Below are positions 8,034 to 46,874 of a DNA stretch of 64,000 nucleotides, one piece after another. A program made the position numbers and the translations under genes. The notes under the pieces were generated by a model, which did not search any database, was not told the origin of the DNA, and worked only from the letters and a program-made list of their open reading frames with translations. Position 1 is the first letter of the stretch. Each line of letters begins with the position of its first letter. The stretch is from Candidatus Versatilivorator sp. (GTDB lineage: Bacteria; Acidobacteriota; Terriglobia; Versatilivoradales; Versatilivoraceae): the NCBI GenBank assembly GCA_965207735.1, contig OZ242296.1:2880001-2944000 (forward strand). Reading direction: 5' to 3'.

Positions 8034-8318
8034 ATGAACCCTCCACATTTCGAACCCCGACGAAGCTGGACAATCAAAGAGGCCAAGGCGCGTCTATGCG
8101 AAATTTTACGCCTCGCCGAAGAGGAGGGACCACAGCAAATCGGTAGGAGAAAACCCTTCGTCGTCGTGCCTGCCCCGGACTGGTACGCGAGGAGACCACC
8201 GCGCAAACCCATGGGAAAGTGGTTGGTGGACAACATGCCTCGCGGGGTGAACCTGGATGTCTCCGGGAAAAGGGAATCCGGGAGAGAAATTCCGTTCTCC
8301 GCAGCCAAACCAGCATGA
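8034..8318 (+). CDS. Phd/YefM-family antitoxin
   Basis: WTIKEAKARLCEILRLAEEEGPQQI...PFVVVP Phd signature. Confidence 0.82.
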   Translation: MNPPHFEPRRSWTIKEAKARLCEILRLAEEEGPQQIGRRKPFVVVPAPDWYARRPPRKPMGKWLVDNMPRGVNLDVSGKRESGREIPFSAAKPA

Positions 8319-8365
8319 ACGGGATCTACTCCTCGCCAACGTTATCTCAGAGTTGACAAGGCATC
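8315..8365 (+). pseudogene. Remnant of the 5' end of a VapC/PIN toxin
   Basis: ATG overlaps the antitoxin stop (ATGA). MNG followed, after a frameshift, by LLLANVISELTR, resembling the PIN start YLLDTNVISEL. The rest is absent. Confidence 0.6.
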
Positions 8366-8426
8366 CGCCATGGTTAGCCGAACTGAAACGGCCATGCTGA
8401 GCGGCGCATGACCAATCCAGGACAAT

Positions 8427-8831
8427 TCACTCGACATCTTGGCCGGTGAGAACGTATTCGAATCGGTCACACTCCCGAGCCAAGGTCTCGATATAGAGCA
8501 CGAGCTCATCTTGGTCCAGTGTCGCAGCCGGAGCCTCAATTTGACCCACCAGCCTGTCGTCATTATCGAACCCAAAGGTAACCAGTGCCTTCGAGGCATT
8601 TCGACGCCACGCCCTGCGGGCGATCCGGCGCCTCTGGTGTTTGTTGCGGGAAACTTCAGAATTTGACAGCACTACCGCGCGGAAGATGTATCGCTCCTTA
8701 TCGCGTGATAACAACACGCTATGGTGGCGGGCACTCTTGTAAAGCGCGACGCGTAGCGTCTCGCCCTCTCGTTCCCACCGTAGGCCCGGCATTTTCGAGA
8801 GGTCGTCGATTCGTTGTTGCAGCGTCCTCAT
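8427..8831 (-). CDS. Small YbjN/CesT(T3SS-chaperone)-like protein, gene 4 of the candidate defence operon
   Basis: 134 aa; beta-rich core then C-terminal helix DQDELVLYIETLARECDRFEYVLTGQD, as seen in YbjN-like proteins. ATGA overlap with the helicase stop. Confidence 0.7.
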   Translation of the reverse strand: MRTLQQRIDDLSKMPGLRWEREGETLRVALYKSARHHSVLLSRDKERYIFRAVVLSNSEVSRNKHQRRRIARRAWRRNASKALVTFGFDNDDRLVGQIEAPAATLDQDELVLYIETLARECDRFEYVLTGQDVE

Positions 8832-11800
8832 GACCCTTCCCTCGCAGATTTGCCGTCAGAGGTCCTCTCAACCAGTCGAGCCGCCATTGTCCCGGCAGCG
8901 GTGACGGTTCTTGTCACGAGCGACTCGAGTTCCTCGAATTGCGTGCAGTGCGGATGAAACAGGATGTCACCTTCGATGTAGACGCGGTCGGTCCGGTCTG
9001 CTGTGTCTGGGCGGACACACACCTTGACCAGACCCAACTCGTGCTGAAGCTCGTACAACTCGTCAAGCCCGTCTTCGTCGCGTTCAATGTCTAGAGGACC
9101 AACTGCGCTGCTACAGTGCAGCAAGGTCGCGTCTCCGGCTGCCTGAGACCGCAACTGCAATTGAAACCGCTGTTCCACTCCTTTCTCATCTGTGTCGCGA
9201 TGGATCAGCTTCGCTCGGTTCACGCGCGCGTTGCCTTCCCGTACCAATGGATCGTCCGCAGGAAAATCACGAATGGCGTAACGCTCTTGGAGAGTTGACC
9301 ACAGTTCCTGAAAATGCGCGAAATCTGCCTTAAGATTGCGTTTCTCGACAGATTTCGCCCCAAGTGTTCCTTTGCGCCACTGAGATAAAACTGGAAAGGC
9401 AGACTCCAGTTCGCCTTCGGGCACCGGGATTGAGTCGAGGTCTTCGAGCATTTCCCGGGCTGCATCGATTCGGCTGCCGAGCGCCTCCGAATCGCCCTTT
9501 TTTCGATGAATTAACTGCAAAAACCTGTTGAGACGGTGCAGTACCCTGCGAACTTGCAGAACCTCGACCGTATCTTGGAGGTGAGGATAGTAGACCTGGA
9601 GAAACTCACCGGCACCTGGAGTGCCGTCGGTTCCGTCCAGACGTCTTTGAACCAGCGAGCCGATGCGGTCAATGCGACCTGTGCGCTGTTCCATGGCCGA
9701 CGGCGTCCAAGTGATGCCGTAGTGAATAATATGCCGACAGAACGTGTGGAGGTCTTCACCCTCCTGAAGGACGTCAGTCGTTACCAGGGCGAGCGGGAAG
9801 CCAGGCATTCGAAACTGAGACACGAGCCGCTTGCTGACTCCCCCGGTCATCCTCCCGACCGGCACTTGCCGTTGGAGCGTAGCACCGAACCGACCGGCAA
9901 GTTGGTCCAGGTCTCCGGTGGGTATGTCTGGGAAGTTGACACCGACCAGCAGGTCGAACCACTTCGCGGCCTGGGAAAGCTCGTAAAATGCGTGAAAACC
10001 AGTCTGCTTGGACTGACGATACAGGAGTTCGACGAACGATCGTGCCAGATTTGGCACTGGAGCGCCCGAGTCGAATTCCTGGCGCAGAGTGAATGCGCCA
10101 AGCTGTTTGATGGCCAACAGATAGAGGTCGATATACGTAGCACCGAGGCGAGCCATTGCGCTCAGCAACTCACGGCGTTGTTCTCGCCTCCGGAACCGTT
10201 GGCGGAAGTTGTCGACAGAATCCTCGGGCCAAACCTGCTCTCTGAGGGTCTGACATTTTGCGAGTTCAGTGAAAAAACTCGTGAAGCCGATTGCTTGCTC
10301 GGGATCCGGAAAGCCTTCCGGCGGTTCAAGCGTCCCTCTGTGTGGATCGGGAAATCTTTCGTGTAGAACGACACGCGCTCGATCGCCTAGAGTTCCCCCA
10401 GCCTTCACGATCAACTCCAGGGCTGCTTGCTGGTACGCGAGAAACACCTGACGCCGGGGATAGCCCTTCGCTCTATGCGTGAGACGCTTGAAGTGCCAGT
10501 AGGCGCAAGTCTTGAGGGTGTCGACAAGTTCGGGAATCGACATTTTGGAGATGCGAGCGATTCTGTCGAGCGGATCCTCTGGCCTGCCCAATAACCAACT
10601 GACATAGTCGTCCTCGAAGAAGGTGGCGTAGACCGAGCTGTGACTTGACAAACGATTCTTCTGAAACGCCGCACCCGATAAAATTCCCTGGGGACCCCTG
10701 CCTCGAAAAAACCACGAGAAGAACGTTTCCGTGCTCCCCTCGTCATCGTCGCCAATACCGCTACGTTCTTCGGGGAGCTCATCCGGGTGATCTTCCTTTT
10801 CATCTAAGGGGAGCACCTCAACTTGTTGCTCTGGTCGCATCGCCCTTTCGCGCTTGTACTGGTTGAACAGCCTTTCGATTTCGTTAGATAACTCCGGGAG
10901 GAATGTCTCCATGCGATTCCGTAGCCAGCGGTCGAAGTGTGCGTCCAACTTTGCTGCCAACTCATCAACTGTCCTGACACGACGTACAAAAACCAGAACC
11001 TTGTCGCCACTGTCAAACATGTGGGCAAATGAGTTGGCAGTACTGTCGAGCTTCGGGTGAGGGAGTGTCGCATGGAATCTGGAACGATGGGACTCAACCA
11101 TTGCCGCAATGGCATCAGTGTCGACTCCAAGACGTTCTTCCACCGTGTCTCCCTGGCTACCGTCGAAGCTCGACGTCGGACCATCTTCGTGCTCGCCTGC
11201 CACCTGTTCTAACCGCCTGGAGCTCCGATTGCGCGTCCCGACCGTTTCCAGAAAACTCTCAAACGAGGACAGCATTCCGATCTGAAAATTGTTCTGGAAC
11301 TTTTCATCCCCGAGGACTTCCGCAACCTTTTTCTGCATCAGGCCAACGACCAGTCGCTGCTTGGGGTCGTCGATCCGTATGGGCAGGTCGTGATTCCGAT
11401 AGCCACCTTGACGCCATTCCCGTCGATACATGTTCTTCGTGTAGCGTCGTCCTGCGATCCTGAGGCTCCCCACACGCCGAACCATGAGTCGACCAACGAT
11501 GTCACGCTTCTCGTCCTCCGAGACATCGGAGTTGAGCAGGAGATCGACGCTGACCGGATCTGCGCCATTTGCGTCCCACAACCTAGTTTTGCCAAAGCCG
11601 AACACCTCGAGCTGGCGTTGTATTGCCGCGTAATCATCCTCGAAGGGGGTCGCCGAGAGGAGCAATACGCGCGCGGGCTTGTGTCGGTACCACGGATGTT
11701 CGTCGGCATGGCCATCTGGATGTCCAAACGCAAGGCCCATGACTCGGTTACGAGTACTGACGTTAGGACCGAATCCATGCTTGAGGTTGTGCCCTTCATC

Positions 11801-12415
11801 AATCACCAGCAGGTCAATCGGAGGCACGGCAGCGTTGATGGCGCATCCGTAGGCATCGCGGAATGCTTCCGGCGTCTCCGCCGATAGAACTTGCCGAGGC
11901 AGCCACCTGACACGTTCCAATAGGCGCCTTCGTAGTCGACTTCGGCGTTCCGGAACCTTGACGGCGAGGCTGAAGCTCGTCATGCGAAGGAAGAAGTCGC
12001 GGTCGGCGTTGAGTAGAGTTTCGCCTGCAAAGTCGAGCAGGCTGTTGCAGTACACTGGCTCCCAGGCTGGTTTACCCTGGAGAGACTTGACACGGTTACC
12101 GGTCAGTCTCCAGTTGAGCCGAACGAAGTTCTTGAGCTCCTTGATCCACTTCCGCTGAATATTCTCGCGCGGGGCGACGACGGCGATACGCGCGTGTGGA
12201 TTGAAATATCGTGTCAACCCCATGACGCCGAGCGCAACGTAGGTCTTGCCCATGCCGACTTCGTCAGCCAAGTAGGCGCACCGGTTTTGCTGCAGCATGT
12301 TGAAGAGCGCGACCGTTCCTTCAAGTTGCTGCTCGGCGAAGCCAAACCCCTTTGCGAGCACGGTCGGGGCGAAGTCGATGAGCTCTTGAACAAACGAGGG
12401 CGTGACGGTGTTCAT
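8828..12415 (-). CDS. Large SF2 (SNF2-like) helicase/ATPase, gene 3
   Basis: LADEVGMGKT (I), IDEGH (II), LSATP (III), KVLVF (IV), TDVLQEGEDL (V), EQRTGRIDR (VI); long insertion between IV and V; ATGA overlap with the PLD gene. Confidence 0.93.
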   Translation of the reverse strand: MNTVTPSFVQELIDFAPTVLAKGFGFAEQQLEGTVALFNMLQQNRCAYLADEVGMGKTYVALGVMGLTRYFNPHARIAVVAPRENIQRKWIKELKNFVRLNWRLTGNRVKSLQGKPAWEPVYCNSLLDFAGETLLNADRDFFLRMTSFSLAVKVPERRSRLRRRLLERVRWLPRQVLSAETPEAFRDAYGCAINAAVPPIDLLVIDEGHNLKHGFGPNVSTRNRVMGLAFGHPDGHADEHPWYRHKPARVLLLSATPFEDDYAAIQRQLEVFGFGKTRLWDANGADPVSVDLLLNSDVSEDEKRDIVGRLMVRRVGSLRIAGRRYTKNMYRREWRQGGYRNHDLPIRIDDPKQRLVVGLMQKKVAEVLGDEKFQNNFQIGMLSSFESFLETVGTRNRSSRRLEQVAGEHEDGPTSSFDGSQGDTVEERLGVDTDAIAAMVESHRSRFHATLPHPKLDSTANSFAHMFDSGDKVLVFVRRVRTVDELAAKLDAHFDRWLRNRMETFLPELSNEIERLFNQYKRERAMRPEQQVEVLPLDEKEDHPDELPEERSGIGDDDEGSTETFFSWFFRGRGPQGILSGAAFQKNRLSSHSSVYATFFEDDYVSWLLGRPEDPLDRIARISKMSIPELVDTLKTCAYWHFKRLTHRAKGYPRRQVFLAYQQAALELIVKAGGTLGDRARVVLHERFPDPHRGTLEPPEGFPDPEQAIGFTSFFTELAKCQTLREQVWPEDSVDNFRQRFRRREQRRELLSAMARLGATYIDLYLLAIKQLGAFTLRQEFDSGAPVPNLARSFVELLYRQSKQTGFHAFYELSQAAKWFDLLVGVNFPDIPTGDLDQLAGRFGATLQRQVPVGRMTGGVSKRLVSQFRMPGFPLALVTTDVLQEGEDLHTFCRHIIHYGITWTPSAMEQRTGRIDRIGSLVQRRLDGTDGTPGAGEFLQVYYPHLQDTVEVLQVRRVLHRLNRFLQLIHRKKGDSEALGSRIDAAREMLEDLDSIPVPEGELESAFPVLSQWRKGTLGAKSVEKRNLKADFAHFQELWSTLQERYAIRDFPADDPLVREGNARVNRAKLIHRDTDEKGVEQRFQLQLRSQAAGDATLLHCSSAVGPLDIERDEDGLDELYELQHELGLVKVCVRPDTADRTDRVYIEGDILFHPHCTQFEELESLVTRTVTAAGTMAARLVERTSDGKSAREGS

Positions 12416-14490
12416 CGCCAGCTATCACCCTGAGCAACAGGCCGAAGGAAGACTTCTTCGTACCACTGCAGGAAGTCGTCGGCCTCCGGTTCGTGGAGTT
12501 TAAGCATGCTCCGTAGACGAGGGAGATGGCTTAGCTGCTCATCCAAGCGTTTGACATGTAACGCTCGACTCCCGAAAAATTTCTCGTGCCGACGCCCGAA
12601 CTTGTGCCTCAACTGCTTCGCGCACAACAGCGTTACGTACGCAAGAATCGGATCACTGTCTGGCTGTTTAAGCACGTTGGCGAGCAGATTGGGGAGAGAA
12701 TCGTACTTGGCACCGAGCAAGCGAGCTTCCGCCACGTTTTCGCGTCCGTTCCCAAGGGCTTCGTCAATGGACCGCTCGAAACAGCCAAAGCCGTGATAGA
12801 TGCCGGCGAAGCGGTCGAAGAGAGTATCTCGTGCACGTAATCTGTCGGTGCGGGAGACAGCCAAGCCTTCGACTTGATCGGGAATACGAGATTCCATGAA
12901 CTGTGCGCGCTGTGCCGGAGTGAGCAAGGACCAGTACTCTAGTATCTCCGCAGGAGTCAATTCCAGGAGGAGCGATGGACGATGTCCCATGTTCTCTTCC
13001 CTTATTAGGACACGCCCGGAATTAACGCCGTAGCGAACGACGAGAAAGCTCGTGGAACGCAGTAGGTTCTGCAGGCGGTCCGAGACATCTTTATCAAATG
13101 CGGTCCAGCGACAATTGACAGGATTGTTGATGGTCGCGAGCGCTTCCCCAGCAGTCGTCAGGACGGTGAATCCGTCAGGCGCATGGTCCTCGAGTCGGTA
13201 ACTGAACTCTTTTTTTCCCCAGTCGAATCGAAGGCTGAGGTTCAGCCCAACAGCATCGCAACCGTCTTCGTTTGTTGGCGTGTTAGGAACAAATCGATCA
13301 GCGTCTCGGTCCAGAGGGTCCAACCACCAATGACGGGCGTACCGAGCTTGGCTGAAATCGACAAGAAACGCCGCCTCCAGGTTTCCCGCACCGCCGTGGG
13401 AATGACCGGCTCTTGTGAGATTCGGTGAACCGACCAACAAGAGATCCGGACCGCCCCGCTTCCAGAATCGATATACCTTGGCGTGAACTCGTCGCGAAAC
13501 GAGGCGCTCGCTTAGACGGTCGCGCCCTCTGCTGACCACCTCCCCCGGGAACCGTGCCCACTGGGTGGAATCAAGATCCCTGATCGCTTCGTAAGTGTCC
13601 CGTGTGACGAGAGATGTGCCGTCGGAATCCGTTGGATGAAAAATCCGTATCTCTTTCGGTCGAACGGCGCCGATGAGCTCTCGCAGGGGACCCTCACCTT
13701 GCGAATCGAAAAATGGCGAGATGACCTCAAGGTTCAAGTCGTGCTTATCGAGAGAGAACTGCCGTAGCCACGTAGAGAGCGACTCGCGGCTCTGTCCCGC
13801 AAAAATCCGCGTGTGATAGCTGTTATCCGAGTGTCTCCGCGCAACGTGACCGCGTTGCGTTCTCTGGAGAAGAAAATTCCTGATTGCCTCTAACGCGGAC
13901 TGGTCGTCTGTATCGCTGGCCGAAAGTCGAATTCTTCGAATAATTGAAAGCAAGTCAGATCGAAATGATTGTCGCTTTCCATCGACAGCACGATCCTTGA
14001 TCTCCTCAATATGGGCACACTCGACGTTTTCCCACCAGCCAGCCCGGGTCAGGTTAGCCGAAAGAATGCCGACGATCAGCGCCATATGGGTAGACGCCGG
14101 CTCTCCTCCGTTACGACCAATGGCATTGTCATCGCTGTTCCGTTCCTGAACGAGGAGCAAAATCACCTTTGGATGGAAATAGCCGGTTCTTCGACTGACG
14201 TCCAGGCGACGGTAGTCCAATTGCGCCGGTTCGCCGTCCTGAGCGAGCGCCCGCCGGTCGTAGTACACGGCCAAATGATCGATCGTGCCAAGGGCATCCT
14301 CGAGCTGCAAACGCCGCACCTTCTCGGGCTGGCTGAAGGGACGGTCGAACAAAACCGGCAGGATATGGAGTTCAAAAAAGCCTGGGTCGAAGCTAAAGGT
14401 CGTGAAGACGGCGGTCTTCACCTGCCGCCCATCAATGGCATCGGCCACCTGCTCGGTAAGCACTTCGAGGGGAATGAGATGCGAGGACAT
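12412..14490 (-). CDS. Phospholipase D-family nuclease with two HxK half-sites, gene 2
   Basis: TTFSFD...FHPKVILL...SANLTRAG and VISPFF...VHAKVYRF...VGSPNLTRAG. Confidence 0.88.
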   Translation of the reverse strand: MSSHLIPLEVLTEQVADAIDGRQVKTAVFTTFSFDPGFFELHILPVLFDRPFSQPEKVRRLQLEDALGTIDHLAVYYDRRALAQDGEPAQLDYRRLDVSRRTGYFHPKVILLLVQERNSDDNAIGRNGGEPASTHMALIVGILSANLTRAGWWENVECAHIEEIKDRAVDGKRQSFRSDLLSIIRRIRLSASDTDDQSALEAIRNFLLQRTQRGHVARRHSDNSYHTRIFAGQSRESLSTWLRQFSLDKHDLNLEVISPFFDSQGEGPLRELIGAVRPKEIRIFHPTDSDGTSLVTRDTYEAIRDLDSTQWARFPGEVVSRGRDRLSERLVSRRVHAKVYRFWKRGGPDLLLVGSPNLTRAGHSHGGAGNLEAAFLVDFSQARYARHWWLDPLDRDADRFVPNTPTNEDGCDAVGLNLSLRFDWGKKEFSYRLEDHAPDGFTVLTTAGEALATINNPVNCRWTAFDKDVSDRLQNLLRSTSFLVVRYGVNSGRVLIREENMGHRPSLLLELTPAEILEYWSLLTPAQRAQFMESRIPDQVEGLAVSRTDRLRARDTLFDRFAGIYHGFGCFERSIDEALGNGRENVAEARLLGAKYDSLPNLLANVLKQPDSDPILAYVTLLCAKQLRHKFGRRHEKFFGSRALHVKRLDEQLSHLPRLRSMLKLHEPEADDFLQWYEEVFLRPVAQGDSWR

Positions 14491-14493
14491 GGG

Positions 14494-15771
14494 TTAGTGC
14501 TGCAACTGCCGAGTGACGCTCTTGAGAGCGTCCACGAAATAGCTGTTCATCCAAAGCTCGGGTAGTTCGTGCTTTGGGGGTAGGGGCTGTTCAGCACCGC
14601 GATATCTCACGTCAAGTCGCGTACCGTCGCCGATGCGCGCCCAGGGAGCCCCACCACGGGTTTGCATCACCTGCTCGTTCCATGCCAGAAGTCCCTGGAT
14701 AGCCGCCTCATAGTCTCCTCTCTGCAAGGCTGCGTGGACCTCATTCATTCGGGAATCAACGGATACGGAGGAGGTTGATCGAATCTCGGCAAGCATTTCT
14801 GCAAAGGCCGAGGGTTCAAGATTTGGGACACGTGCACCCCAGACTTGGCGCACCTCGGAGGCGACGTCTGAGAGGCGCTGACCATCACGAGTCAGCACGT
14901 GCTGGAAGAGCGCGGCGGCTGGTGCAAGAAGAGCTTCGAGGTGGGCGATCCGCTCAAGAGAGTTTGCAAGCCCTGGGTCCGATCGTCTTGCTCGTTTGGA
15001 GAGATGGACTATCTCGGCGCGTCCCGTGGGTTCGTTCAGCTTAGATTCCGACTCCAATAGGCGCCGGAACCTTTCCTGTCGCCCTGATTTTGCACCGTCG
15101 ACCTCTTTCCCGTCTCGCAGGTAGGAGCCGTAGAATTCGAATTCAATGGAGCTGAATCTCGGGTCCAAAACCTCGGACAGCGCGGAGAAGAGGGCGTTGC
15201 TTTCGTGGGTTCGAAGTTTGCCCCCTCGGGCAAGCAGTTTTCGCAGTTTGGCCGCCGAGCCGTTCAGTCTACTGATGTAGTTGTGCTCAATGAACTCTCG
15301 GGCAACCGGGGCTACATCACGAGTGGCATCCGGGAGCAAGCCAGAGGTGCGGGCAGGAACCGAATACAAGCCCCAGAGCCCATAGACTTTCTGGTCGGCC
15401 AGGATCATGCTTCGCCGGTCAGCGGAAATACTCACATAACCAGCTTGCTCATGGACAAAGCGCTTTACACGCTCGATGCCACGGATTTCCCCTTCAACTG
15501 CATGGCCGACGTACCGCACATAGGCACCAATCTGTTCCATCCGTAGGAAGATGTCGAGCGCATCTTCCGGAGCAGCCAAGCCTCCTTCTACGAGATCAGC
15601 CGCAAAATAGCGGCCGAGCAGGAGAGTCGTGAAACCTCGAACGGAAGTACTTTGAGTGGTAAGGTTGGTGACAATGTGGCGGCCAAACGCGGTCCAAATG
15701 GGTTGGACACCTAACGGATCGCGCGATCCGCTAATCTTGGCATTGGGGTCTTCCAGAGTGAGGAAAGGCAC
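14494..15771 (-). CDS. Uncharacterised 'GSRDPLG' protein (DUF6361/ZacA-like?), gene 1
   Basis: Start moved to GTG 15771 (VPFLTLEDPNAKISGSRDPLG), just below a sigma70 promoter; motif VYGLWGLYSVP..SGLL; ends 3 bp before the PLD start. The family name is recalled, not searched. Confidence 0.75.
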   Translation of the reverse strand: MPFLTLEDPNAKISGSRDPLGVQPIWTAFGRHIVTNLTTQSTSVRGFTTLLLGRYFAADLVEGGLAAPEDALDIFLRMEQIGAYVRYVGHAVEGEIRGIERVKRFVHEQAGYVSISADRRSMILADQKVYGLWGLYSVPARTSGLLPDATRDVAPVAREFIEHNYISRLNGSAAKLRKLLARGGKLRTHESNALFSALSEVLDPRFSSIEFEFYGSYLRDGKEVDGAKSGRQERFRRLLESESKLNEPTGRAEIVHLSKRARRSDPGLANSLERIAHLEALLAPAAALFQHVLTRDGQRLSDVASEVRQVWGARVPNLEPSAFAEMLAEIRSTSSVSVDSRMNEVHAALQRGDYEAAIQGLLAWNEQVMQTRGGAPWARIGDGTRLDVRYRGAEQPLPPKHELPELWMNSYFVDALKSVTRQLQH

Positions 15772-15781
15772 GGCGTGAAGA

Positions 15782-15810
15782 AAGTTATAGAGAATCGAGG
15801 TTGTTGTCAA
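15782..15810 (-). promoter_or_regulatory. Sigma70-type promoter of the four-gene operon
   Basis: Minus strand TTGACA-N17-TAACTT, 10 nt above GTG 15771; no SD, so possibly near-leaderless. Confidence 0.65.
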
Positions 15811-16087
15811 CGCCACTGGGATTGAGCTTGGCGCGTGTACGGGCCTCAATCGGAGAGCGAGAGATCTCGAATTCGGGACCAAGTCGCTGGTAGGCTTTGC
15901 GGTATTCTGGATCCTCGCTCCATTTCTCGTGCAGATCGGCCACCTTGCTCATTTCGTTACCTCTCCGGCGCGCCTCAGCGCCAGTTCAATTTCTCGGCGG
16001 GGCGCAGCCTGCCGGCAACTGCTGTGCACGTTTGGCGAGGCATCGGCTTTCCTCCGACTATCTGTCGCGACCCCGAACCAAAGCGCA

Positions 16088-16120
16088 GTTTTTCCTGTAA
16101 TTCAACAACGTCCCCTATTT
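16088..16120 (-). repeat. Family G junction repeat (TAGGGGACGTTGTTGAATTAC...), single copy
   Basis: Plus strand gtttttcctgtaattcaacaacgtcccctattt matches copies at 25.7, 40.4-40.6 and 60.9-61.4 kb. Confidence 0.85.
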
Positions 16121-16165
16121 GTCTGCTGGCCAGCGATATTTTAGCCTTGGGACCTGCAGGCGAGC

Positions 16166-16933
16166 CTATTCGGGAGCTTTTCTTTGGCGCTTGATAGTCA
16201 GGGGAGTGGACTGGCCTGACTGCTTCCAGTGGCCCACGATCTCGGACCCGTCCGGGCTGAGGGTTCCTTCGAAGGCTGCGGGCGGCCTGTTGAGCCTGAG
16301 CCGAACGGAGTTGTCCGTGACCCTTATGTGGGAGAGCTTCAGCCCCATCGCCCCCTGGTCCAGGCTGTCGAGCGTCCCGCTGAAGCCCTCGGCCTGGTCA
16401 TGGTCGATCCTGAAGAGCAACCGCAAACTGATCTGCGCGACCTCCAGGCGACCGAACCAGATCCCGGCCAGACCCTCGCCCGGAACCCCTTCGATGGGTG
16501 GCGGTGGCGGCTTCGGGGCCGCGACCGTCGCCGGATCCACCTCACCGGTTCGTTCGAGCTTGAAGGGGAAGCGGCCGCCCCCCTGGCTAAAGGTACCAAA
16601 TAGCTGCCGGCCGTCTTTGGAGAGTTTTCCGTGGAATCGAGGAGTCCCGGGCACACCCTCCATTGAGAACGACGCCTTGCTCCCATCCACTTTTACGTTC
16701 GAGAGAAGGAAATCCGAGAGCCCCTGTACCGGAATGCTGATCTTGCCGGCCCAGACTTCCGCCGGGGTAGGGGCAAGATCGACGATAACTCCCAAGGCTT
16801 GACCGGGCGTCTCGATCGCTCCCTCCCAACGGCCCTGTCCCCGGGGGTTCGATTGCCGGGCATGAAGGGATCCGTCCAAAACCAGCAGCAGAAAGCAGAG
16901 ATAAAGCACCGGCGGCTTTGCAGCAGAGTTCAT
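16166..16933 (-). CDS. Secreted protein with two tandem beta-rich domains
   Basis: Signal peptide; two repeats (G.W.G.I/L...QG...L...F.G.LS.DG..L.G.F/W.Q.G...P...R) joined by a Pro-rich linker. Confidence 0.75.
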   Translation of the reverse strand: MNSAAKPPVLYLCFLLLVLDGSLHARQSNPRGQGRWEGAIETPGQALGVIVDLAPTPAEVWAGKISIPVQGLSDFLLSNVKVDGSKASFSMEGVPGTPRFHGKLSKDGRQLFGTFSQGGGRFPFKLERTGEVDPATVAAPKPPPPPIEGVPGEGLAGIWFGRLEVAQISLRLLFRIDHDQAEGFSGTLDSLDQGAMGLKLSHIRVTDNSVRLRLNRPPAAFEGTLSPDGSEIVGHWKQSGQSTPLTIKRQRKAPE

Positions 16934-16951
16934 GGATGACGTTCCTCGCGC

Positions 16952-17389
16952 TCAGCTCCAGACGGCGATGACCACCGCCTGCCCCAGAAGGGAAACCGCG
17001 TTGAAGCCCAGGCTGAGCCAGAAGAGCCCCGCCTTGCGGCCCTCGTAGGCCCACGCCTGATAGAAAACCGGGAGAACGAAAGCGATCAGGGCCATCAGCG
17101 CCAGGTGGACCCCCACCATGGCGTTGCCGGCACCCCCGGTCATCGAGGAAACGCTCTCGGGTCCACCCATGCCGGCGAAGAGCTGGGCCAGGATGAAGGC
17201 GGTGACCAGCGCCAGCACGAAGCTGGCCCCGTGGGTCTTCAGGGGATTGAAGTTCTTCTGGATTTCCTCGGCGGTAGTCTCCATGAGTGCGAGCCACCGC
17301 TTGCCGAACAGCGGTCCGTACCAGAGGAAGCCGACAATCATGGGAACGATTCCGGCCACCAGTACCGCCAACAGGTTGACTTCATGCAT
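16952..17389 (-). CDS. DUF1761-like membrane protein
   Basis: NLLAVLVAGIVPMIVGFLWYGPLFGKRW signature; AAGGAGG SD before ATG 17389. Confidence 0.8.
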   Translation of the reverse strand: MHEVNLLAVLVAGIVPMIVGFLWYGPLFGKRWLALMETTAEEIQKNFNPLKTHGASFVLALVTAFILAQLFAGMGGPESVSSMTGGAGNAMVGVHLALMALIAFVLPVFYQAWAYEGRKAGLFWLSLGFNAVSLLGQAVVIAVWS

Positions 17390-17564
17390 GATCCTGTCCT
17401 CCTTAATTAGTGGGAGATGTCTACGGACTGCAGGGGCAGTATAGATGATTCGGCAATCGCCTGCGCGTCCCTGCCCCGGTCGCATGAACAAGCGATGCCG
17501 GCTTCATTCCAGTGTCGGCTGCTGGTAGACTACGACCAACCACCCGGACCCGAGTTGACACACC

Positions 17565-18317
17565 ATGAACCGACAACTGAAAACCCTTCTTCCCTTGTGT
17601 CTGTTGTGGCTTCCGGCCTGCAAAGTCACGGTCACCGACAGCACTTCCCCGACCGATCCTCCCGAACGCGGGCCGCGCACCCAGCCGGGCGCCAGCATGG
17701 AGATCTATGCGCCCGAGCAGCACGACCTCTACGACGGCCGCTTCATCATCTCGGGAGCTCGCATCCATCAAGTGGGCACGCTGAACGATGAGAGCCCCTG
17801 GGACCACATGGGCAATGACGGTTCGAATCTTCGGTCCGTCGAGGGCACGGTCGAGCTCGATGTCGATGAGATCAACAATACGGGAACGTTCCGCGCCGAG
17901 CTCGAGCTTCCCGAGGGCAGCTATGTGATCAACCTGGAAGAATTCAAGGAATTCTCACCCTGCCAGGACGGCGGCATCGCGGCCTGGCTGTTCGAGCACG
18001 GCGATTCCGGCTGCGGGGATGCTTACTGGCCCAAGAGCATTCTCTACGTGGCCGGATGGGGTATCGGCTCCGCCACCTTGAACGGAAAATCGCTCTACCA
18101 GGACTACCAGATTCACTTCATGGTCACCCAGGGCATGCGGGATCGGAACCTGGTGGCTCACTATCCTCACCCCGGAAAAAAGTCCCAGGCCGGCGCCGTC
18201 AACCCGGCCCTCCAGCAGCTGGACTTCTACATCCGCAGTCCTGAAACCAACGACGCCAATATTCCCAACCGCGAAGTGTTCGACCACTTCTTCGCCATGG
18301 AAGTGACCTGGAAATAG
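17565..18317 (+). CDS. Hypothetical lipoprotein
   Basis: Signal peptide ending LPAC (lipobox-like); 250 aa with host codon bias. Confidence 0.75.
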   Translation: MNRQLKTLLPLCLLWLPACKVTVTDSTSPTDPPERGPRTQPGASMEIYAPEQHDLYDGRFIISGARIHQVGTLNDESPWDHMGNDGSNLRSVEGTVELDVDEINNTGTFRAELELPEGSYVINLEEFKEFSPCQDGGIAAWLFEHGDSGCGDAYWPKSILYVAGWGIGSATLNGKSLYQDYQIHFMVTQGMRDRNLVAHYPHPGKKSQAGAVNPALQQLDFYIRSPETNDANIPNREVFDHFFAMEVTWK

Positions 18318-18345
18318 CCGGGCGAGGTTGCGACCCTGGGCTGGG

Positions 18346-21180
18346 TCAGTAGAGTCGAGGGGAGGCGCGCCGGCCTTAGATCGAGGGAGTCGCTGTTGCC
18401 GGCGGCTTTCGCCACTCGCCGGTGCCTCAATCTCGTTCCTCGCTGCGTTTCCTCGCCCCCGCTCGTCAAACCGGACGTGCGGTTTTCCCGCATCCGGCTT
18501 TCAGTCAAGATCATGCCTTCGCCCTCGGAAGGCTCTGTGGCTTCGACCCCAGGCAAGTGAGTCCATAGGTTTTCCATAGTCTCTCGTCCGAGAAGCGCAC
18601 ACTCCCCCCGGTCCTCACCTTGTGCTTCCGACAGAGCCACTGACGCAGCCGCCCGCCCGCGTGGCGGTCGATCGCTCGGTAGGCCGGGCTCACCTGCCCC
18701 AGAACGAAGTAGTTCGCCCACCCGGTCATCGCCCGGTTCAGGTGTTCTACCATCTGTCCTCGAAGCAGCGTCCCGTTCCTCGGCGCCGTCCACTCGCTGA
18801 TCTTGCGGCAGATGCTCTGGACGCTCGCCTGGCTGGGTCGTGTGCCGATGTAGGCTCCTTTCCCTTTGGGGCGATAGTTGCGTCCGATGCGATATCCCAG
18901 AAACCCCATCGGTTCCTCCGGACACCGCAAGCATCGGGTCTTCCGCTCGTTGACCGGTAGCTTCAGCTCCTCCATGATCCGCTTGACCGCCGTCAGCATC
19001 TCTGCCGCCGGTGCCCTGCCGAGTACACGGAAGTCATCCGCATAGTTGACGATCTCCGCACAGAAGCGCCGGGCATATCCCAGCACCTTCCAGCCCAAAA
19101 CGAAGCGCCGCATGTAGAGATTGCTGAGCAACGGTGAGATCGGGGCTCCTTGCGGTGTCCCCTTCCGCTCCCGGCGCCCTCGGTTCCGGCGGCGTCTGCC
19201 ACCCTTCCCGTCGTCCTCCTCCACCGGCATCTCCAGCCATGCCTTGATGAGCTTGAGCATCCTCCCGTCACTCACGCGCCGGGCAATGCTTCGAATCAGC
19301 TCCGCATGCGGAATCTCGCCGAAGTAGTTGGACAGGTCGCCGTCAACCACCTCCTGGTAACCCCTTTGCAGGAGTTCATGCACGCGTTTGACCGCGTCGT
19401 TGGCACTCCGCCCCCGCCGATAGCCATATTGCTCCGGTTGCAGGTCCGCTTCGAAGATCGGCTCCAACACCAGCAAAGCCGCCGTCTGCGCTACCCGGTC
19501 CCGTATGCAGGGTATGCCCAAAGGCCGGAACTTGCCGGGCTGTTTCTTCGGGATCAGCACCTGCCGCACCGGCTTCGGTACGTAGGTTCCTTCCCTCAGG
19601 TCCCGCGCCAGTTCCCCCAGCCAGCCCTCCACCCCATACGCCTCGATGTCCTTGAAGCCCTCCCCGTCCACCCCGGCCGACCCGCCGTTTCGGCGTACCT
19701 GTGCCCAGGCTTCCTTCAGAAAGTCCTCTCGCCACACCTTGTCCGACAGCGCATGAAACCGCCGCTTGGGGTCCTCCTTCGCTTTCGCATGTAGCATGGT
19801 CTGGAATTTCCGAACCCCCTCTGACCCTGTTAGACTCTTGTCAGTGGCCACGCCTTGCCTCCTTTCCATGCTGCTCTCAACTCAGGGTCCCTTCCCTCCA
19901 CCGGCGTTACCCGGCTTCTCCGGTACTACCGACCCATCCGCCACCCTGACGGCCCGGCCTGCCCCTCGCGGGGTCCCGGTTGATGTGTGCCGCATCTCCC
20001 CCAGGGCTTCCCGTGTTGCTGCCTTCTTCCCCTTCCATGCGTGCCAGCGTCACTACCCCGACGGAAGCGGATCGGTGCCCGCGTCGCTCTCTTCCCCATC
20101 CGCCAACGGCCTTCCCCTAAAGACAGGAGGGTCGGCTTCCGTATTGTCCGTTTCGAGGCCTGCTCGACGTTCACTCGCGTTCCGGCCCGCATGCTCGCTG
20201 AGCCGCCCTTGGCGGCCCTTGACCCCAGAGTGCTTCAGACCATTTCGTTACCTCCATGATCCGCCCTGGCTGCTACCAACCGGAGCGACAGTTGTTGGGC
20301 GGGGTTCGCACCCGCCAGAAGAAGGCGCCTTTCCACGGCGCACTGTCTTCTCGGCGATGATCCCGATCATCGGCGGCGCCGACAGGAACGTGCCCGGATC
20401 CCGTTCGCGAGCACGCCATTCGGCTTCGAAGGCGCATCGATCCGCCTCCGTCAACAAGCCGGCTTCGACCAGCCGCGGCACGTAGCCGAAGAAGAACTGC
20501 GTCGGCCAGTCCCAGAAGCTTGTGCCGGGTCTGATGAACCGTACGAGCGGAACCAGGTCGACCAGACGGCACCCGGACTTCACAACCATCCCCGGCAAAC
20601 GAGCGCCCACGTCCAGATCGCCGCCGGTGGGTTTCCAGCTTTCGCTAACCGCCGCCAGCACGCGATCGAACACCGGGCTCCGCGGCTGCAGGGTGGTGGC
20701 GCGGTAGTTCAGATAGTCCCAGATCACCAGGCGGCCGCCCGGGCGCAACCCTGACACGACCCGGTCGATGACCGGGGCGGGGTCCCGCAGAAAGCAGAAG
20801 ATCCAGCGAGCGAAGGCGCCGTCCAGCGAGGCGGGCTCCAGTTGCAACTCCTGGACCTTCTCCACCCGCGCCGTGAGCTGCTCTATCCCGAGACGGTCCG
20901 CTTCTCTGACCAGATAGGCGATGAAGCGCCGCGACTCGTCGACGGCGAGCACCCGGCCTTCGGGCCCGACCCGGGCCGCCAGTTCAAGAGCGGCGAAGCC
21001 CGGTCCACAGCCGAGATCCAGCAGCCGCGCACCCTTCTCAAACCCTGCGCGGCCCCAGAGGTCGTGGGCTGCCTCCGCCCACAAGCGGTGCTGCGTTTCG
21101 AGGCGCCGCCCTTCCTCCGGATCGGTGCCGAGCAGATAGGGATCCTCCGGTTTGCGGCGAGTATGCGTTTCAGGTCTCAT
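18346..21180 (-). CDS. Class I SAM-dependent methyltransferase interrupted by a group II intron: join(21180..20344, 18348..18346)
   Basis: LLDLGCGPG motif I, LRPGG post-II motif. Exon 1 is 279 codons ending AEKT; exon 2 is the TGA stop. Confidence 0.85.
18349..20343 (-). mobile_element. Group II intron (~2.0 kb)
   Basis: 5' end GTGCGCC at 20343; domain V (AGCCGGATGCGGGAAAACCGCACGTCCGGTTTGACGAGCGGGG) at ~18457-18499; 3' end ...CGACTCTAC at 18349; encodes RT/maturase. Confidence 0.92.
18511..19869 (-). CDS. ltrA: Group II intron reverse transcriptase/maturase lacking an En domain
   Basis: GGSAGVDG, RPLGIP..RDR, PQGAPISPLLSN, YADD, FLGY, X domain GWANYF; no C-terminal HNH. Confidence 0.93.
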   Translation of the reverse strand: MERRQGVATDKSLTGSEGVRKFQTMLHAKAKEDPKRRFHALSDKVWREDFLKEAWAQVRRNGGSAGVDGEGFKDIEAYGVEGWLGELARDLREGTYVPKPVRQVLIPKKQPGKFRPLGIPCIRDRVAQTAALLVLEPIFEADLQPEQYGYRRGRSANDAVKRVHELLQRGYQEVVDGDLSNYFGEIPHAELIRSIARRVSDGRMLKLIKAWLEMPVEEDDGKGGRRRRNRGRRERKGTPQGAPISPLLSNLYMRRFVLGWKVLGYARRFCAEIVNYADDFRVLGRAPAAEMLTAVKRIMEELKLPVNERKTRCLRCPEEPMGFLGYRIGRNYRPKGKGAYIGTRPSQASVQSICRKISEWTAPRNGTLLRGQMVEHLNRAMTGWANYFVLGQVSPAYRAIDRHAGGRLRQWLCRKHKVRTGGSVRFSDERLWKTYGLTCLGSKPQSLPRAKA

Positions 21181-40830: not shown

Positions 40831-41946
40831 TCAAGTGTCGTAAATGAGCATCTTGTCCGTCAAATCCGACGCAACCTCATGTCTTTGCACACAGTGGACA
40901 ATCTCTTGGGAACGACTCAGACGTCGCTCCACTATGTCCCCACACTCTTTACACATAACGCGAAACTTGTCGGCTTCCTCGCTGTCATAAGGCATGTAGC
41001 GTCTCATCACCTCGATTAGATTGTTCTCGTCAACAAGTGTGATCTTTTTGCCCTGGACAAACTCTTTAGCGGTTTTGCCGAACTTAGCAGTGGTGACGAA
41101 AAAGCCCCTTGTAGCCGCTGCTTCTGTCACCGCCGAGTGGAAAACTTGAAGGTCTCGCCTGCCGATGCTTCTATCTCTGGCATACCTTTTGCACTCAATC
41201 AAATAGGTTTTTCCATCCTTTAGCGCAATAGCGTCTCTTCCACGGTCGTTCGAGTAGGGGGTTTGCTCAACAGCATAACCCCTCTTTCTGAATAGCTCGC
41301 TCACGAGATCTTCAAAGGCCCGTGGTGAAAGCTCTAGTAGTTTTCTGTAGTCACGACGTATCTGGTCTGCTAACCGATGAAATTCTTTTTCGCGAAGGTC
41401 ACGCGCCTGCTCTCGAATCCTTTCGTGCTCTTTAGCCCGAGCTTGGTCGGCGCGACGTTTGTACTCCAGTTGTCGCTGCTTCTCTCCGCACAGCGAGCAC
41501 TGACCAGCCGTAAGTCCGCCTGGGACTCCGTGTGGGCAAAGGATCCGCTCAAATTCCCGAATTCGATGACCTTTAACAAATGGGTGAATCAAGAATTCCA
41601 CAGCAGCCCATCCGGCACTGAGAGCCATGACGACGGCAGGCAACAGTACTACGTCGGAAATCTCTAAGCCAGCCCACATCAAGACAAACAGGACTCCGCT
41701 TATTGTCCAAAAGACACGCACCTCTGCACGAGACCATTCATCACTTGGCGTCTCTGGCTGGCTAAACTGTTCAAGTTCTTGGTAAGTATCAGAGGAGTGT
41801 GACGGGTCCTGGAGGGTCGGTTTGTTTGGAGGGGGCCAGTCGAAGAGTTTCTTACACCTCGGACAGGTCACTTTCAGGTTCCCCCGGTGCCGAGGCAACC
41901 GTAGTTGTTGCCGACAATTAGGACAGGCTATGATGGTTTCTGACAT
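40831..41946 (-). CDS. Membrane-anchored Mrr-like PD-(D/E)xK endonuclease with zinc ribbons
   Basis: CPNC..CPRC ribbon, two TM helices, then SPRAFEDLV.ELF..RGY...DRGRD...IECKRY...FFVTT..F (Mrr_cat), C-terminal CKEC. Confidence 0.85.
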   Translation of the reverse strand: MSETIIACPNCRQQLRLPRHRGNLKVTCPRCKKLFDWPPPNKPTLQDPSHSSDTYQELEQFSQPETPSDEWSRAEVRVFWTISGVLFVLMWAGLEISDVVLLPAVVMALSAGWAAVEFLIHPFVKGHRIREFERILCPHGVPGGLTAGQCSLCGEKQRQLEYKRRADQARAKEHERIREQARDLREKEFHRLADQIRRDYRKLLELSPRAFEDLVSELFRKRGYAVEQTPYSNDRGRDAIALKDGKTYLIECKRYARDRSIGRRDLQVFHSAVTEAAATRGFFVTTAKFGKTAKEFVQGKKITLVDENNLIEVMRRYMPYDSEEADKFRVMCKECGDIVERRLSRSQEIVHCVQRHEVASDLTDKMLIYDT

Positions 41947-42407
41947 CTCTGCTCTTAAGTGTGTTGAGTTTTCGGTTCCGGATCACGACCCGGTGCGGAG
42001 TTCGCTTGAGGACTACGGGGAGCGATCGCGTCCCAAGACTTGCCGCTTCTGGCCTGGATGGTGATGGTGAGGCCGGCGAGCTCCAGGGGTAGGGCAGTGG
42101 GGTTCGGCCCCGCGTAGAAGCTTCTCCAGGAGCCATCGGGGAGGCGGGCAGGCCGCGCCAGCCCTCGAGGGGCTCGAAAAGCTCAAACCTGGGCCTCGTA
42201 GCCGTTCCTGACAATCCCTTTGAGAAGGAGACGACTGCTAATGGACGTCATCAGCATAGCAAATCGACAATTACTCAACGGACTGTGGTGTTCACAAAAA
42301 GGGAGAACCTATTAGCTGGGCGTATAAAAAGGCACTTACAAACTTGCAGGAGGGCTTTTTGTGAAGTCTGGGCAGTCCATATGTAGTGGTTTTGGATCTG
42401 GTCTTTA

Positions 42408-42749
42408 GTGGGCATAGAGAACATGAATCTAAAACTTAAAGACCCTGTGTCCCCTTGCGTCTACATCTTCCTGGACGAGTCCGGGAACTTTGACTTCCGC
42501 AGGAGCGGAACCCGCCATCTTGTGATGACCTGCGTTAGTATGTGCCGCCCGTTTTCGGCTTGGGAGCATCTTGATGACTATAAGCAAGAATTAGCCGCGC
42601 AATGCGAACAGTTGGAGAAACAATTCGCCAAGTGGGCGAACCTGACGAAACTACTCACCGAGGACCATCAAGAGATGGGCGCCCACGTTACAAAATTAAC
42701 CAACGTCTACCACACGCTCACGGCGGATTTGAGGGAACTTTTGCGTTGA
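42408..42749 (+). pseudogene. DUF3800-like N-terminus fused to an unrelated coiled-coil fragment
   Basis: YIFLDESGNFDF motif, but the ORF is only 113 aa and the second half is a heptad-rich helix. Confidence 0.55.
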
Positions 42750-43818
42750 TCCATGCCGAGGCCGAGCAGAAGCGGAATGCAGGGGACCAGCCGGACCGCG
42801 TTGCGGGGCTAATTGAGAGCCGGATTCAGAACCGAGTGCGTAGCCGCGGTGGACCGGGCAGGTGATCTCAGATGCTGCAGGGCTCTCTCCTGTGGGAAGG
42901 TCTTGAGCATGGAAGGACTTCGATGAAACTGCCGAGTGGGCTATGTTGGATTTGTGGCGGACTTGTCGTTATCGGACTGGCTTCGATCGTGGTGGTCTAT
43001 TGGGAGTGGTTAAGCTGCGGGGAGTCTGGATCCACGACCCTCCGTAACCTTGGCCTCATGGTTGCCGGCGTCATTGCGCTTTGGTTTGCTTACCGGCGTA
43101 GCCGCGTAGCTGATCGCCAAGCCGAAACTTCGCACCGTGGTCTTCTGAACGAGCGCTATCAGAAGGGCGCAGAGATGCTCGGCAGCAAGGTGCTATCTGT
43201 CCGCTTGGGAGGTATCTACGCGCTGCAACGTCTGTCCGAGGACGAGCCGGAGCAGTACCACCTCCAAATCACGCATCTGTTCTGCGCCTTTGCGAGCCAT
43301 CCAACCGAGGACAGAGACTACATGGCTGCGTTGAGGGTCACCGAACAGAAACCACACCGACTCCGCGAGGATGTTCAGGTCGCTGTGACGGCGATCGGAA
43401 CCCGTAGCGAACAAGACATTGAACTTGAGAAGAAAGGGAACTTCTCCCTAATCTTGGACTGTGCGTACTTGGTCGGTGCGTATCTGAGCGGCGCAGACCT
43501 AACTGGCGTGAGTCTGAGCAAGGCAAACTTGGCCGACGCGTACCTGGTCAAAGTAAACCTAACTGATTCGCACCTGAACAGCACAGACCTGACCGGGGCG
43601 TACTTGAGCGGCGCAGAGCTAAACGGGGCATACCTGCTTAAAGCAAACCTGACAAAAGCAGAGCTGACCGACGCAACCCTGACCAGCGTAAAACTAAGCG
43701 ACGCAGACCTGACTGGGGCAGACCTGACGGGCTCAGATCTGACTGGAGCAGTCCTAACCAATGCAATCTTGACGAACGCCACCCTGAGGAATACAACGCT
43801 GACGAACGCAATGCTTAG

Positions 43819-45516: not shown

Positions 45517-46139
45517 TTAGGAAAGCAAACCTGACGAACACAATCCTGAAGAATGCAAAATTGGATAGCGCAGATCTAACCAACACCAAGCTGGGCGACG
45601 CAGACCTGGGCGGCGCAGACCTGGCTGGGGCGTACCTTACCGACTCAGACCTGTCCGGCGCGTACCTGACGGGAGCGGTCCTGACCGGAGCGGTCCTCTT
45701 TCAGGTGAAAGGCCTCACCCAGGGCCAACTCAACCTAGCGTGCGCCAATCCCGATAACCCTCCCAATTTAGGTCAACTCCGTGATGCTGAAACTGGTGCC
45801 CCTCTGGAATGGCGCGGCAAACCTTGCAGAGAGTAAGCTCCCGATAAAGTATCTTGTCGGCCCCTATTTCAGCGACCTCGAGGACCAGCGCCAGGGCGTT
45901 CTCGAGACGCCTGGAACGCTTCCCCGGGCTGGATCCGCGTCACCAGCGCGTGATTTCCCGGGTGCTACGGGTCGCCGGCCCCCGGGAAAATCTAACAGAG
46001 GCTATCCTGCGGCCTCTGTTTTCGCGGATTGTGCCCCAGGAAGCGTTTTTGGGGTTTTAGGGTACGCTGGAGGTCGAGAAATCGCAGCCTTGCCTGCCTA
46101 GCTCAAGGATTTGTGGGGTATCTAGTGGTTGCCGATCCC

Positions 46140-46873: not shown

Positions 46874-46874
46874 G

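Follow-up and report, generated by a model that had tools for sequence, protein, structure and literature searches.

Operons that pair a nuclease with a helicase form a large and mostly unexplained class of phage defence, and how such systems spare host DNA is an open question. One of them, Azaca, was reportedly first described by Millman et al. in 2022. It consists of the DUF6361 protein ZacA, the phospholipase D (PLD) nuclease ZacB and the superfamily 2 (SF2) helicase ZacC, and its DNA cleavage is reported to need all three proteins, the PLD site and the Walker A motif of ZacC (10.1101/2025.07.10.664194). The same preprint describes strong protection against T4 and cleavage that favours T4 DNA, in vitro also when no phage protein is present, and its authors propose the glucosylated hydroxymethylcytosine of T4 as a possible cue (10.1101/2025.07.10.664194). 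A second relative, PDC-M27, is described as one of 145 ‘guilt-by-embedding’ candidates that Payne et al. added to PADLOC (10.1101/2024.01.29.577857), and its name occurs in no full text of the literature that was searched. Here, we describe a four-gene cassette (g1 to g4) in a window of 64,000 nucleotides, the whole stretch of DNA analysed, from Candidatus Versatilivorator sp. (contig OZ242296.1 of assembly GCA_965207735.1, positions 2,880,001–2,944,000 of the forward strand); coordinates are window positions. By analogy with these relatives, the cassette probably encodes a four-subunit, ATP-driven nuclease–helicase complex of the Azaca/PDC-M27 kind that would defend its host against phages or other invading DNA. 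A preliminary description of the locus had suggested a divergent four-component variant or a new system. We find that the fourth component is indeed conserved, but that the core is already catalogued as a candidate, PDC-M27 being its closest catalogued relative.

The four genes are minus-strand open reading frames (ORFs) in the same orientation between 8427 and 15810 (Table 1). Three base pairs separate the g1 stop from the ATG of g2, ATGA overlaps join g2 to g3 and g3 to g4, and the start of g4 overlaps the helicase stop codon, which confirms the co-oriented, tightly coupled layout of the preliminary description. Its observations on composition and gene content held as well. The GC content of the cassette is 56.5% compared with 62.0% in the rest of the window, and the bias in GC at third codon positions (GC3) is weaker than in host genes, at 0.60–0.65, whereas 30 long ORFs elsewhere in the window have a median of 0.76; these ORFs were picked greedily and are possibly in the wrong frame in some cases. 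Pfam finds no methyltransferase domain in any of the four proteins, and the catalytic motifs of both the helicase and the PLD nuclease are complete and invariant across the family alignments. At the level of genes and motifs the cassette is intact.

Table 1 Features of the cassette and its borders in the window.
Feature	Position	Strand	Description
g1	14494..15771	-	425 aa; all-alpha, PDC-M27A-like; likely adaptor or sensor subunit
g2	12412..14490	-	692 aa; two-HxK phospholipase-D-family nuclease, ZacB/PDC-M27B-like; predicted effector
g3	8828..12415	-	1195 aa; SF2 (DExH, SNF2-like) helicase/translocase, PDC-M27C/ZacC-like
g3 C-terminal extension	8831..9565	-	Residues ~951-1195; not in canonical PDC-M27C
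g3 last ~110 residues	about 8861-9193	-	Likely second TY-chaperone/YbjN-like domain
g4	8427..8831	-	134 aa; type III secretion chaperone/YbjN fold; predicted partner of the helicase tail
Upstream leader	15772..15810	-	39 bp, conserved, promoter-like hexamers; left edge of the mobile cassette
PIN/VapC-like remnant (context)	8311..8400	+	29-codon frame 8311-8397, after a Phd-like ORF; right border
55-codon ORF (context)	15785..15952	-	Runs into the left edge of the cassette; no Pfam match

By profile comparison, the closest catalogued relative of the cassette is PDC-M27 and not Azaca. PDC-M27 has the same order of the first three genes, an all-alpha protein, a two-HxK PLD protein and an SF2 helicase, and all three of its PADLOC models match the window with partial coverage (PDC-M27A to g1 at 8.1e-23, PDC-M27B to g2 at 9.3e-18 and PDC-M27C to g3 at 1.5e-67; the comparison is one of E-values of individual models). 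Across seven diverse members of the family the E-values run from 1e-14 to 1e-22 for model A, from 1e-7 to 1e-17 for model B and from 1e-67 to 1e-80 for model C, with ZacB often the better model for g2 and PADLOC matches to g4 in 0 of 7; the g4 protein of the window matches no PADLOC model even at E≤10. For contrast, a canonical PDC-M27 locus was found by tblastn in a plasmid collection, on the Rhodoferax antarcticus plasmid NZ_CP019242.1 (locus L097), and its proteins match models A, B and C at 1.9e-182, 1.3e-242 and E=0 (605, 805 and 1287 bits), all at full length. Whereas PDC-M27 comprises three genes with a helicase of about 870–890 aa (869 aa in this locus), the window has a 1195-aa g3 and adds g4. 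The plasmid helicase aligns to the g3 profile only to position ~950, the g3 tail of ~245 residues is absent from it, and the locus contains no g4 match at E≤10. As judged from these sequences, the window system is a sister clade of PDC-M27 and of Azaca, set off from canonical PDC-M27 by the helicase tail and by g4.

The plasmid locus has two further features. An unannotated 135-codon ORF without a match to the g4 profile follows the helicase (L097:14061-14468). The plasmid is mobilizable, and within the region considered (L097:1-18363) macro-domain, ATP-binding, DUF2779 and WYL genes lie nearby while a recombinase and a Tn3 transposase adjoin.

The two catalytic subunits place the cassette among nuclease-plus-SF2-helicase operons, as the preliminary description had it. 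The signature of the PLD (HKD) superfamily, an HxK followed by G/S-x-N, occurs twice in g2 (H106/K108 with S144-A-N146, and H336/K338 with S355-x-N357), and these residues are invariant in 41 of 41 family members. Pfam matches remain below the cut-offs (PLDc_2 at E 0.016, RE_NgoFVII at E 0.0064), and a search of PDB sequences gave no match to g2. The helicase g3 matches Helicase_C (4.8e-10) and ResIII (1.1e-6) above the Pfam cut-offs and has the motifs that define SF2 helicases, namely I (GxGKT), II (D206-E207-x-H209), III (SAT) and VI (QxxGRxxR), all invariant in 37 of 37 members; among PDB sequences it matches RapA in the motif region only. It also shares the C-terminal helicase motif region with DISARM DrmD, Dpd DpdE and BREX BrxH (1e-12 to 1e-16), although these matches span only ~45 residues around motifs V–VI. 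DISARM (DrmC/DrmD), PLD_Helicase and other systems likewise pair a PLD nuclease with an SF2 motor, but the cassette has no DrmA/DrmB, methyltransferase, PglZ or Dpd gene.

The preliminary description had likened the triad of an unknown protein, a PLD nuclease and a helicase to Azaca, and this stands for two of the three proteins. The architecture is shared, an accessory protein followed by a PLD nuclease and an SF2 helicase, and neither system has a methyltransferase. ZacB is homologous to g2 (5.6e-16), which like ZacB is a PLD nuclease with catalytic HxK motifs, and ZacC to g3 (4.1e-21). The ZacB match covers profile positions 18–331 of 586 and leaves the C-terminal half of g2 uncovered, and the best ZacC stretch takes in only g3 residues 868–925, PDC-M27C being a much better fit. 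For the third protein the likeness consists of a similar length and a short motif, R-D-x-L-G ... T-x-R, that ZacA and g1 have at corresponding positions near the N-terminus. No ZacA model is listed for g1 in PADLOC at E≤10, the g1-family HMM (hidden Markov model) has no match in ZacA ORFs at E≤1, and when the g1 family is compared with DUF6361 alignments by hhalign the E-values are 0.053 and 0.071, over the short N-terminal motif only, the second comparison using a deeper ZacA alignment and still not being significant. Neither the ZacA model PDLC03828 nor PF19888 (DUF6361) matches anything in the genome of the window, although the latter is present in 8 of 401 genomes of the phylum. Azaca also has three genes compared with four here: in five Azaca loci of the same phylum the g4 profile finds no match, and the four of them with a located ZacC have no small ORF coupled to this gene. 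Finally, cleavage of T4 DNA and protection against T4 are reported for Azaca, whereas the window family is known from sequence alone.

The first subunit, g1, has no family in Pfam or NCBIfam searches. It most likely starts with the GTG at 15771, since most of the 120 homologues listed are 425 aa long at 100% coverage and all 10 aligned cassettes share this GTG, with nothing further upstream conserved as protein. A TTG at 15882, which opens the longest frame (14494..15882), was considered as the start and rejected on the same grounds. Within the candidates scored, g1 has homologues in 1019 clusters (90% identity) at E≤1e-3. Its N-terminal peptide, FLTLEDPNAK..GSRDPLG, contains residues that are invariant in 51 sequences (F3, T5, D8, G15, S16, D18 and L20). 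The AlphaFold model is almost entirely alpha-helical (predicted local distance difference test (pLDDT) 91.5, predicted template modelling score (pTM) 0.88), with residues 1–15, inside the invariant peptide, predicted to be disordered (pLDDT <50). Foldseek finds no PDB match to the model at E≤1e-3, and the g1 profile finds nothing meaningful among PDB sequences (best E 0.71). By analogy with Azaca, g1 is likely an adaptor or sensor subunit.

What sets the clade apart is one clean addition to its three-gene relatives, a chaperone-fold subunit together with a helicase tail that likely matches it. The preliminary description called g4 YbjN-like, and the structure model bears this out. With Pfam, YbjN falls just under the cut-off (E 3.8e-4, 21.1 bits versus 22), and 15 of 36 members of the g4 family match it at E≤0.01. 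The g4 model (pLDDT 89.9, pTM 0.85) has 25 Foldseek matches in the PDB at E≤1e-3, led by ExsC (3kxy, 1e-5) and including YbjN itself (6vu7, 4.4e-4). Among the matches listed are the class I type III secretion system (T3SS) chaperones ExsC, SycN–YscB, SpcU, CesT, SigE, SicP and SycE and the YbjN-family proteins YbjN, AmyR and DR1245, and all the rows listed are T3SS chaperones or YbjN-family proteins. T3SS chaperones and YbjN-family proteins are described as a peptide-binding TY-chaperone superfamily (PMC9503650), and the g4 model has the same alpha-beta fold as its members ExsC, SycN–YscB, SpcU, CesT, SigE and YbjN/AmyR/DR1245. TY-chaperones are dimers, some of them heterodimers (SycN–YscB, 1xkp), that grip extended peptides. 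The sequence identity of g4 to them is only 11–20%, and its genetic setting differs too: g4 is linked to a nuclease–helicase operon and T3SS chaperones to a secretion system. Unlike TY-chaperones, g4 has the tail of a helicase as its predicted partner.

Comparison across genomes ties g4 to the other three genes. One genome per species was scanned with the g1 alignment, which yielded 59 loci, and genes were tallied with HMMs built from the family, counting a helicase coverage of at least 0.88 as complete. The preliminary description had asked whether homologues keep the order g1-g2-g3-g4, and across the related loci they do. The helicase is complete in 40 of the 59, one of which (L026) ends inside the helicase, and g4 was found in 39 of 39 loci with a complete helicase and DNA beyond it, across many phyla. 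Coverage of g4 is at least 0.84 in 38 of these and 0.40 in L059, in which each of the four genes is split between several frames. Contig ends cut the other 19 of the 59 loci, or only remnants are left there. Moreover, g3 and g4 form a single ORF of 1349–1387 aa in four loci (L017, L018, L029 and L035). A g4 profile search of 1.84 billion representatives (50% identity) returned 559 proteins at E≤1e-3; the best 150 are mostly stand-alone proteins of 120–146 aa, and four of them are 1310–1446 aa long with the g4 match at the very C-terminus. Another complete system, with g1, g2 and a 1258-aa g3–g4 fusion, occupies 8938–15939 of the 47.5-kb scaffold MT835507.1 (L098), a record labelled ‘UNVERIFIED: Bacteriophage sp.’. 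Recurrent gene fusion is a classic sign that two proteins act together physically. Because of the synteny in 39 of 39 loci and the recurrent fusion to the helicase, we regard g4 as part of the system and predict that it is an obligate fourth subunit.

In one further locus (L020:13359-17216) the helicase frame does not end at the usual stop; it extends to 1285 aa and runs over g4 in another frame, either because the stop codon has been lost or because of an error in the sequence.

The last ~110 residues of g3 are likely a TY-chaperone-like domain paralogous to g4. Aligning the g4 family to the g3 tail with hhalign gives an E-value of 0.0036, and 6.6e-4 with deeper alignments (a probability of 27% over 41 columns); what aligns, in register, is the last strand together with the C-terminal helix. 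The named Atlas clusters closest to g3 residues 1060–1195 are those of TY-Chap1, YbjN and CesT at 0.85–0.88, which is below 0.9 and a lead only. The conservation patterns of the two alignments also run parallel, as judged by eye. The low hhalign probability and the modest Atlas scores weigh against such a domain, as does the finding that Pfam YbjN matches 0 of 28 helicase tails at E≤1, and taken together the sequence signals for a chaperone-like tail are weak. BLASTP of g4 against the g3 tail gave nothing and the g4 HMM has no match in g3.

The cassette also behaves as a mobile unit. In three cassettes of ~73% identity that lie in other contexts (L009, L020 and L007), blastn homology extends exactly over 15810..8427, from the TTGACA hexamer to the g4 stop. 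Two closer relatives of ~87% identity (L008 and L015) share the flanks as well, for example a major facilitator superfamily (MFS) transporter gene, and the cassette is therefore at the same place in the nearest genomes. The horizontal acquisition proposed in the preliminary description is thus borne out by homology that ends sharply at 15810 and 8427 and by the lower GC and GC3, and the alignments indicate that the cassette moves horizontally as a sharp modular unit. In a maximum-likelihood tree of 37 g3 proteins, built by a quick method, at least 10 phylum labels are intermingled, and the Acidobacteriota rows need at least 6 changes; the method is quick and the phylum labels of metagenome-assembled genomes are uncertain. 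The distribution is sporadic and patchy. The PDC-M27A model matches 6 of 401 genomes of the phylum sample, all weakly and all of the type of the window family, and among 400 scored genomes of the class of a Dyella locus it matches only the genome with that locus.

Decay is frequent. Insertion sequences (IS) interrupt g3 in L011 and g2 in L023, and in L026 they interrupt both of these genes; the genes of L019 and L059 are frameshifted, and about a dozen loci retain g1 fragments only. The insertions lie at L011:14084-15417, L023:12159-13581 and L026:11363-13612 and 16406-18845, and the transposases found inside related cassettes are of the DUF4372+DDE_Tnp_1, Mutator-family, DDE_Tnp_1 and Transposase_29 types. 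Two remnants (L063:10001-10443 and 14811-15038; L065:5113-5358) have an N-terminal g1 fragment next to a C-terminal g4 fragment, the two abutting in L065, which suggests internal deletions that took out g2 and g3.

If the cassette works as Azaca does, g1, g2 and g3 would form a complex in which g1 acts as adaptor or sensor, the g3 motor translocates on DNA using ATP, and the two-HxK PLD domain of g2, a built-in pseudo-dimer, cuts foreign DNA. There is no self-modification gene, and what distinguishes foreign from host DNA must therefore be some feature of the invader, or else a trigger. Both possibilities of the preliminary description apply: a phage protein may be sensed, or modified DNA, and the latter idea agrees with what is reported for Azaca (10.1101/2025.07.10.664194). 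The fourth subunit would pair with the putative paralogous chaperone-like domain at the end of g3, in the manner of heterodimeric secretion chaperones, and the pair could grip an extended peptide and thereby assemble or gate the nuclease. Candidates for such a peptide are the invariant g1 N-terminus, from within the complex, and a phage protein, from outside. A more specific version, which we put forward as a speculation with a low probability of being right, is that the helicase tail and g4 form a heterodimeric chaperone-like clamp that is the switch of the immune complex, holding or releasing a peptide to license the PLD nuclease; the invariant g1 N-terminus, predicted to be disordered, would be the best candidate for that peptide, and a phage protein the alternative. 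If true, this would be the first type III-chaperone fold to serve as a regulatory or sensor module of a DNA-targeting defence system, and the clamp would explain how the window clade differs from three-gene PDC-M27 and Azaca.

Several points weigh against a four-subunit defence complex of the Azaca/PDC-M27 kind. PDC-M27 and the window family are both known only as predictions, the PDCs having come from guilt-by-embedding (10.1101/2024.01.29.577857). The PADLOC matches of the window are weak beside those of the canonical locus (8e-23 versus 1.9e-182 for g1, 9e-18 versus 1.3e-242 for g2), the contrast with a three-gene form is drawn from that single locus, and g1 is not detectably related to ZacA by models, HMM or hhalign. 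Linkage to defence islands, raised as a check in the preliminary description, appears moderate: a PADLOC-positive ORF (E≤1e-8) lies within 5.5 kb in 8 of 20 diverse loci, a raw count without a background rate. Three of these loci have matches to generic domains, such as a methyltransferase, a kinase or a protease, and 12 of 20 loci have no PADLOC-positive neighbour. The latter figure would suit a cassette that is not immune at all and serves as a DNA-transaction module, for repair, recombination or the resolution of replication conflicts, or as a tool in competition between mobile elements. The scaffold filed as bacteriophage (an unverified record) and the relative on a mobilizable plasmid beside a Tn3 transposase fit this too, and SF2 motors and PLD nucleases are also known outside defence. 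We nevertheless consider a non-immune role unlikely, given that g2 and g3 are homologous to Azaca proteins with reported anti-T4 activity (10.1101/2025.07.10.664194), that the distribution is as sporadic as the PDC-M27A counts in the phylum sample indicate, and that sharp modular transfer with frequent decay is the pattern of accessory defence and not of housekeeping repair.

The same frequent decay and IS disruption would also fit a costly or self-toxic system, and hence an abortive-infection device. In such a device the chaperone-like pair of g3 tail and g4 would not recognise modified or foreign DNA directly but bind a protein or peptide of the phage, and so free the PLD nuclease for indiscriminate degradation of DNA, that of the host included. 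The lack of a methyltransferase or other self-marking gene agrees with this, as does the peptide binding described for the TY-chaperone fold (PMC9503650). However, peptide binding by g4 is a prediction from the fold only, and Azaca, the only tested relative, is reported to cut T4 DNA without a phage protein (10.1101/2025.07.10.664194), and we rate abortive infection as fairly unlikely. Very improbable, in our judgement, is a plain PDC-M27 system with g4 as an unrelated neighbour. In its favour, the PADLOC models stop at A, B and C, and each of them has a match. Against it, g4 occurs in all 39 loci that leave room for it, in many phyla, its start overlaps the stop codon of the helicase, several lineages have the two genes fused, g4 ends exactly where cassette homology stops, and the canonical locus lacks both g4 and the helicase tail. 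Chance proximity of g4 was rejected, since synteny and fusions contradict it.

Taking the cassette as a four-subunit nuclease–helicase defence complex, its core is a catalogued candidate and a distant relative of the validated Azaca, and g4 with the matching helicase tail is not described in the literature searched. Specifically, a full-text search, thin on subscription journals, returned no paper on a four-gene relative of Azaca or PDC-M27 that includes a YbjN-like subunit. The clade is common, judging by the g1 clusters among the candidates scored and the g4 representatives counted above, and its loci are likely to be under-called or mis-delimited because defence finders model three of the four genes, and those weakly. 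The clade offers a natural experiment on what an accessory subunit adds to an Azaca-type machine, be it assembly, gating or sensing.

The left edge of the cassette is a 39-bp leader that the cassette alignment shows to be conserved in unrelated contexts. Of the TTGACA-N17-TAACTT promoter given in the preliminary description, the hexamers are present (15810-15805 and 15787-15782) and the leader is conserved, but TAACTT matches the -10 consensus at 3 of 6 positions, and with so weak a -10 the site is absent from the output of a consensus promoter scan, in which 8200-16200 contains 2 promoter-like sites where 2.6 would be expected. From its sequence the leader may function as a promoter, and the short distance to the GTG would then give a nearly leaderless mRNA. 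At the other end, 13 bp past the g4 stop and outside the conserved cassette, a hairpin with a 9-bp stem and a T-rich tract (8389-8414, minus strand) is a possible terminator supplied by the host flank.

The flanking truncated vapC and family G repeat of the preliminary description were recovered in part. A dispersed repeat of ~35 bp, presumably the family G repeat, lies at 16084-16124, about 270 bp left of the cassette, and has at least 50 near-identical copies on both strands of the 5.26-Mb genome; several copies form close inverted pairs, resembling repetitive extragenic palindromic (REP) elements. The vapC assignment was made by eye, and the 29-codon fragment at 8311-8397 has no Pfam match; by its N-terminal pattern the fragment looks like the start of a PIN/VapC protein. 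The neighbouring ORF at 8034-8318 is weakly Phd-like (Pfam PhdYeFM, E 3.6e-4). On the other side, the 55-codon ORF is possibly a truncated antitoxin-like gene, with a putative resemblance to XRE/HigA-type N-termini.

Around the related cassettes, the informative PADLOC neighbours are AbiEi, AbiEii with RtcR-CARF, CapP, PDC-S05/S44/M05A, a DpdE/ZorD-like helicase and a NERD-helicase with RmuC, and Pfam adds a Tn3 transposase, an integrase with CHAT, TnsA and NACHT. One cassette (L050) sits in a dense conflict-system neighbourhood, with ARPP-1, a NERD-UvrD helicase, RmuC and RlaP around it (L050:5118-9948 and 17245-18093). Elsewhere in the window, several long ORFs at 40834-47945 have GC of 0.51-0.56 and GC3 of 0.53-0.63, below the norm of the window, and by this composition the region may be another acquired island.

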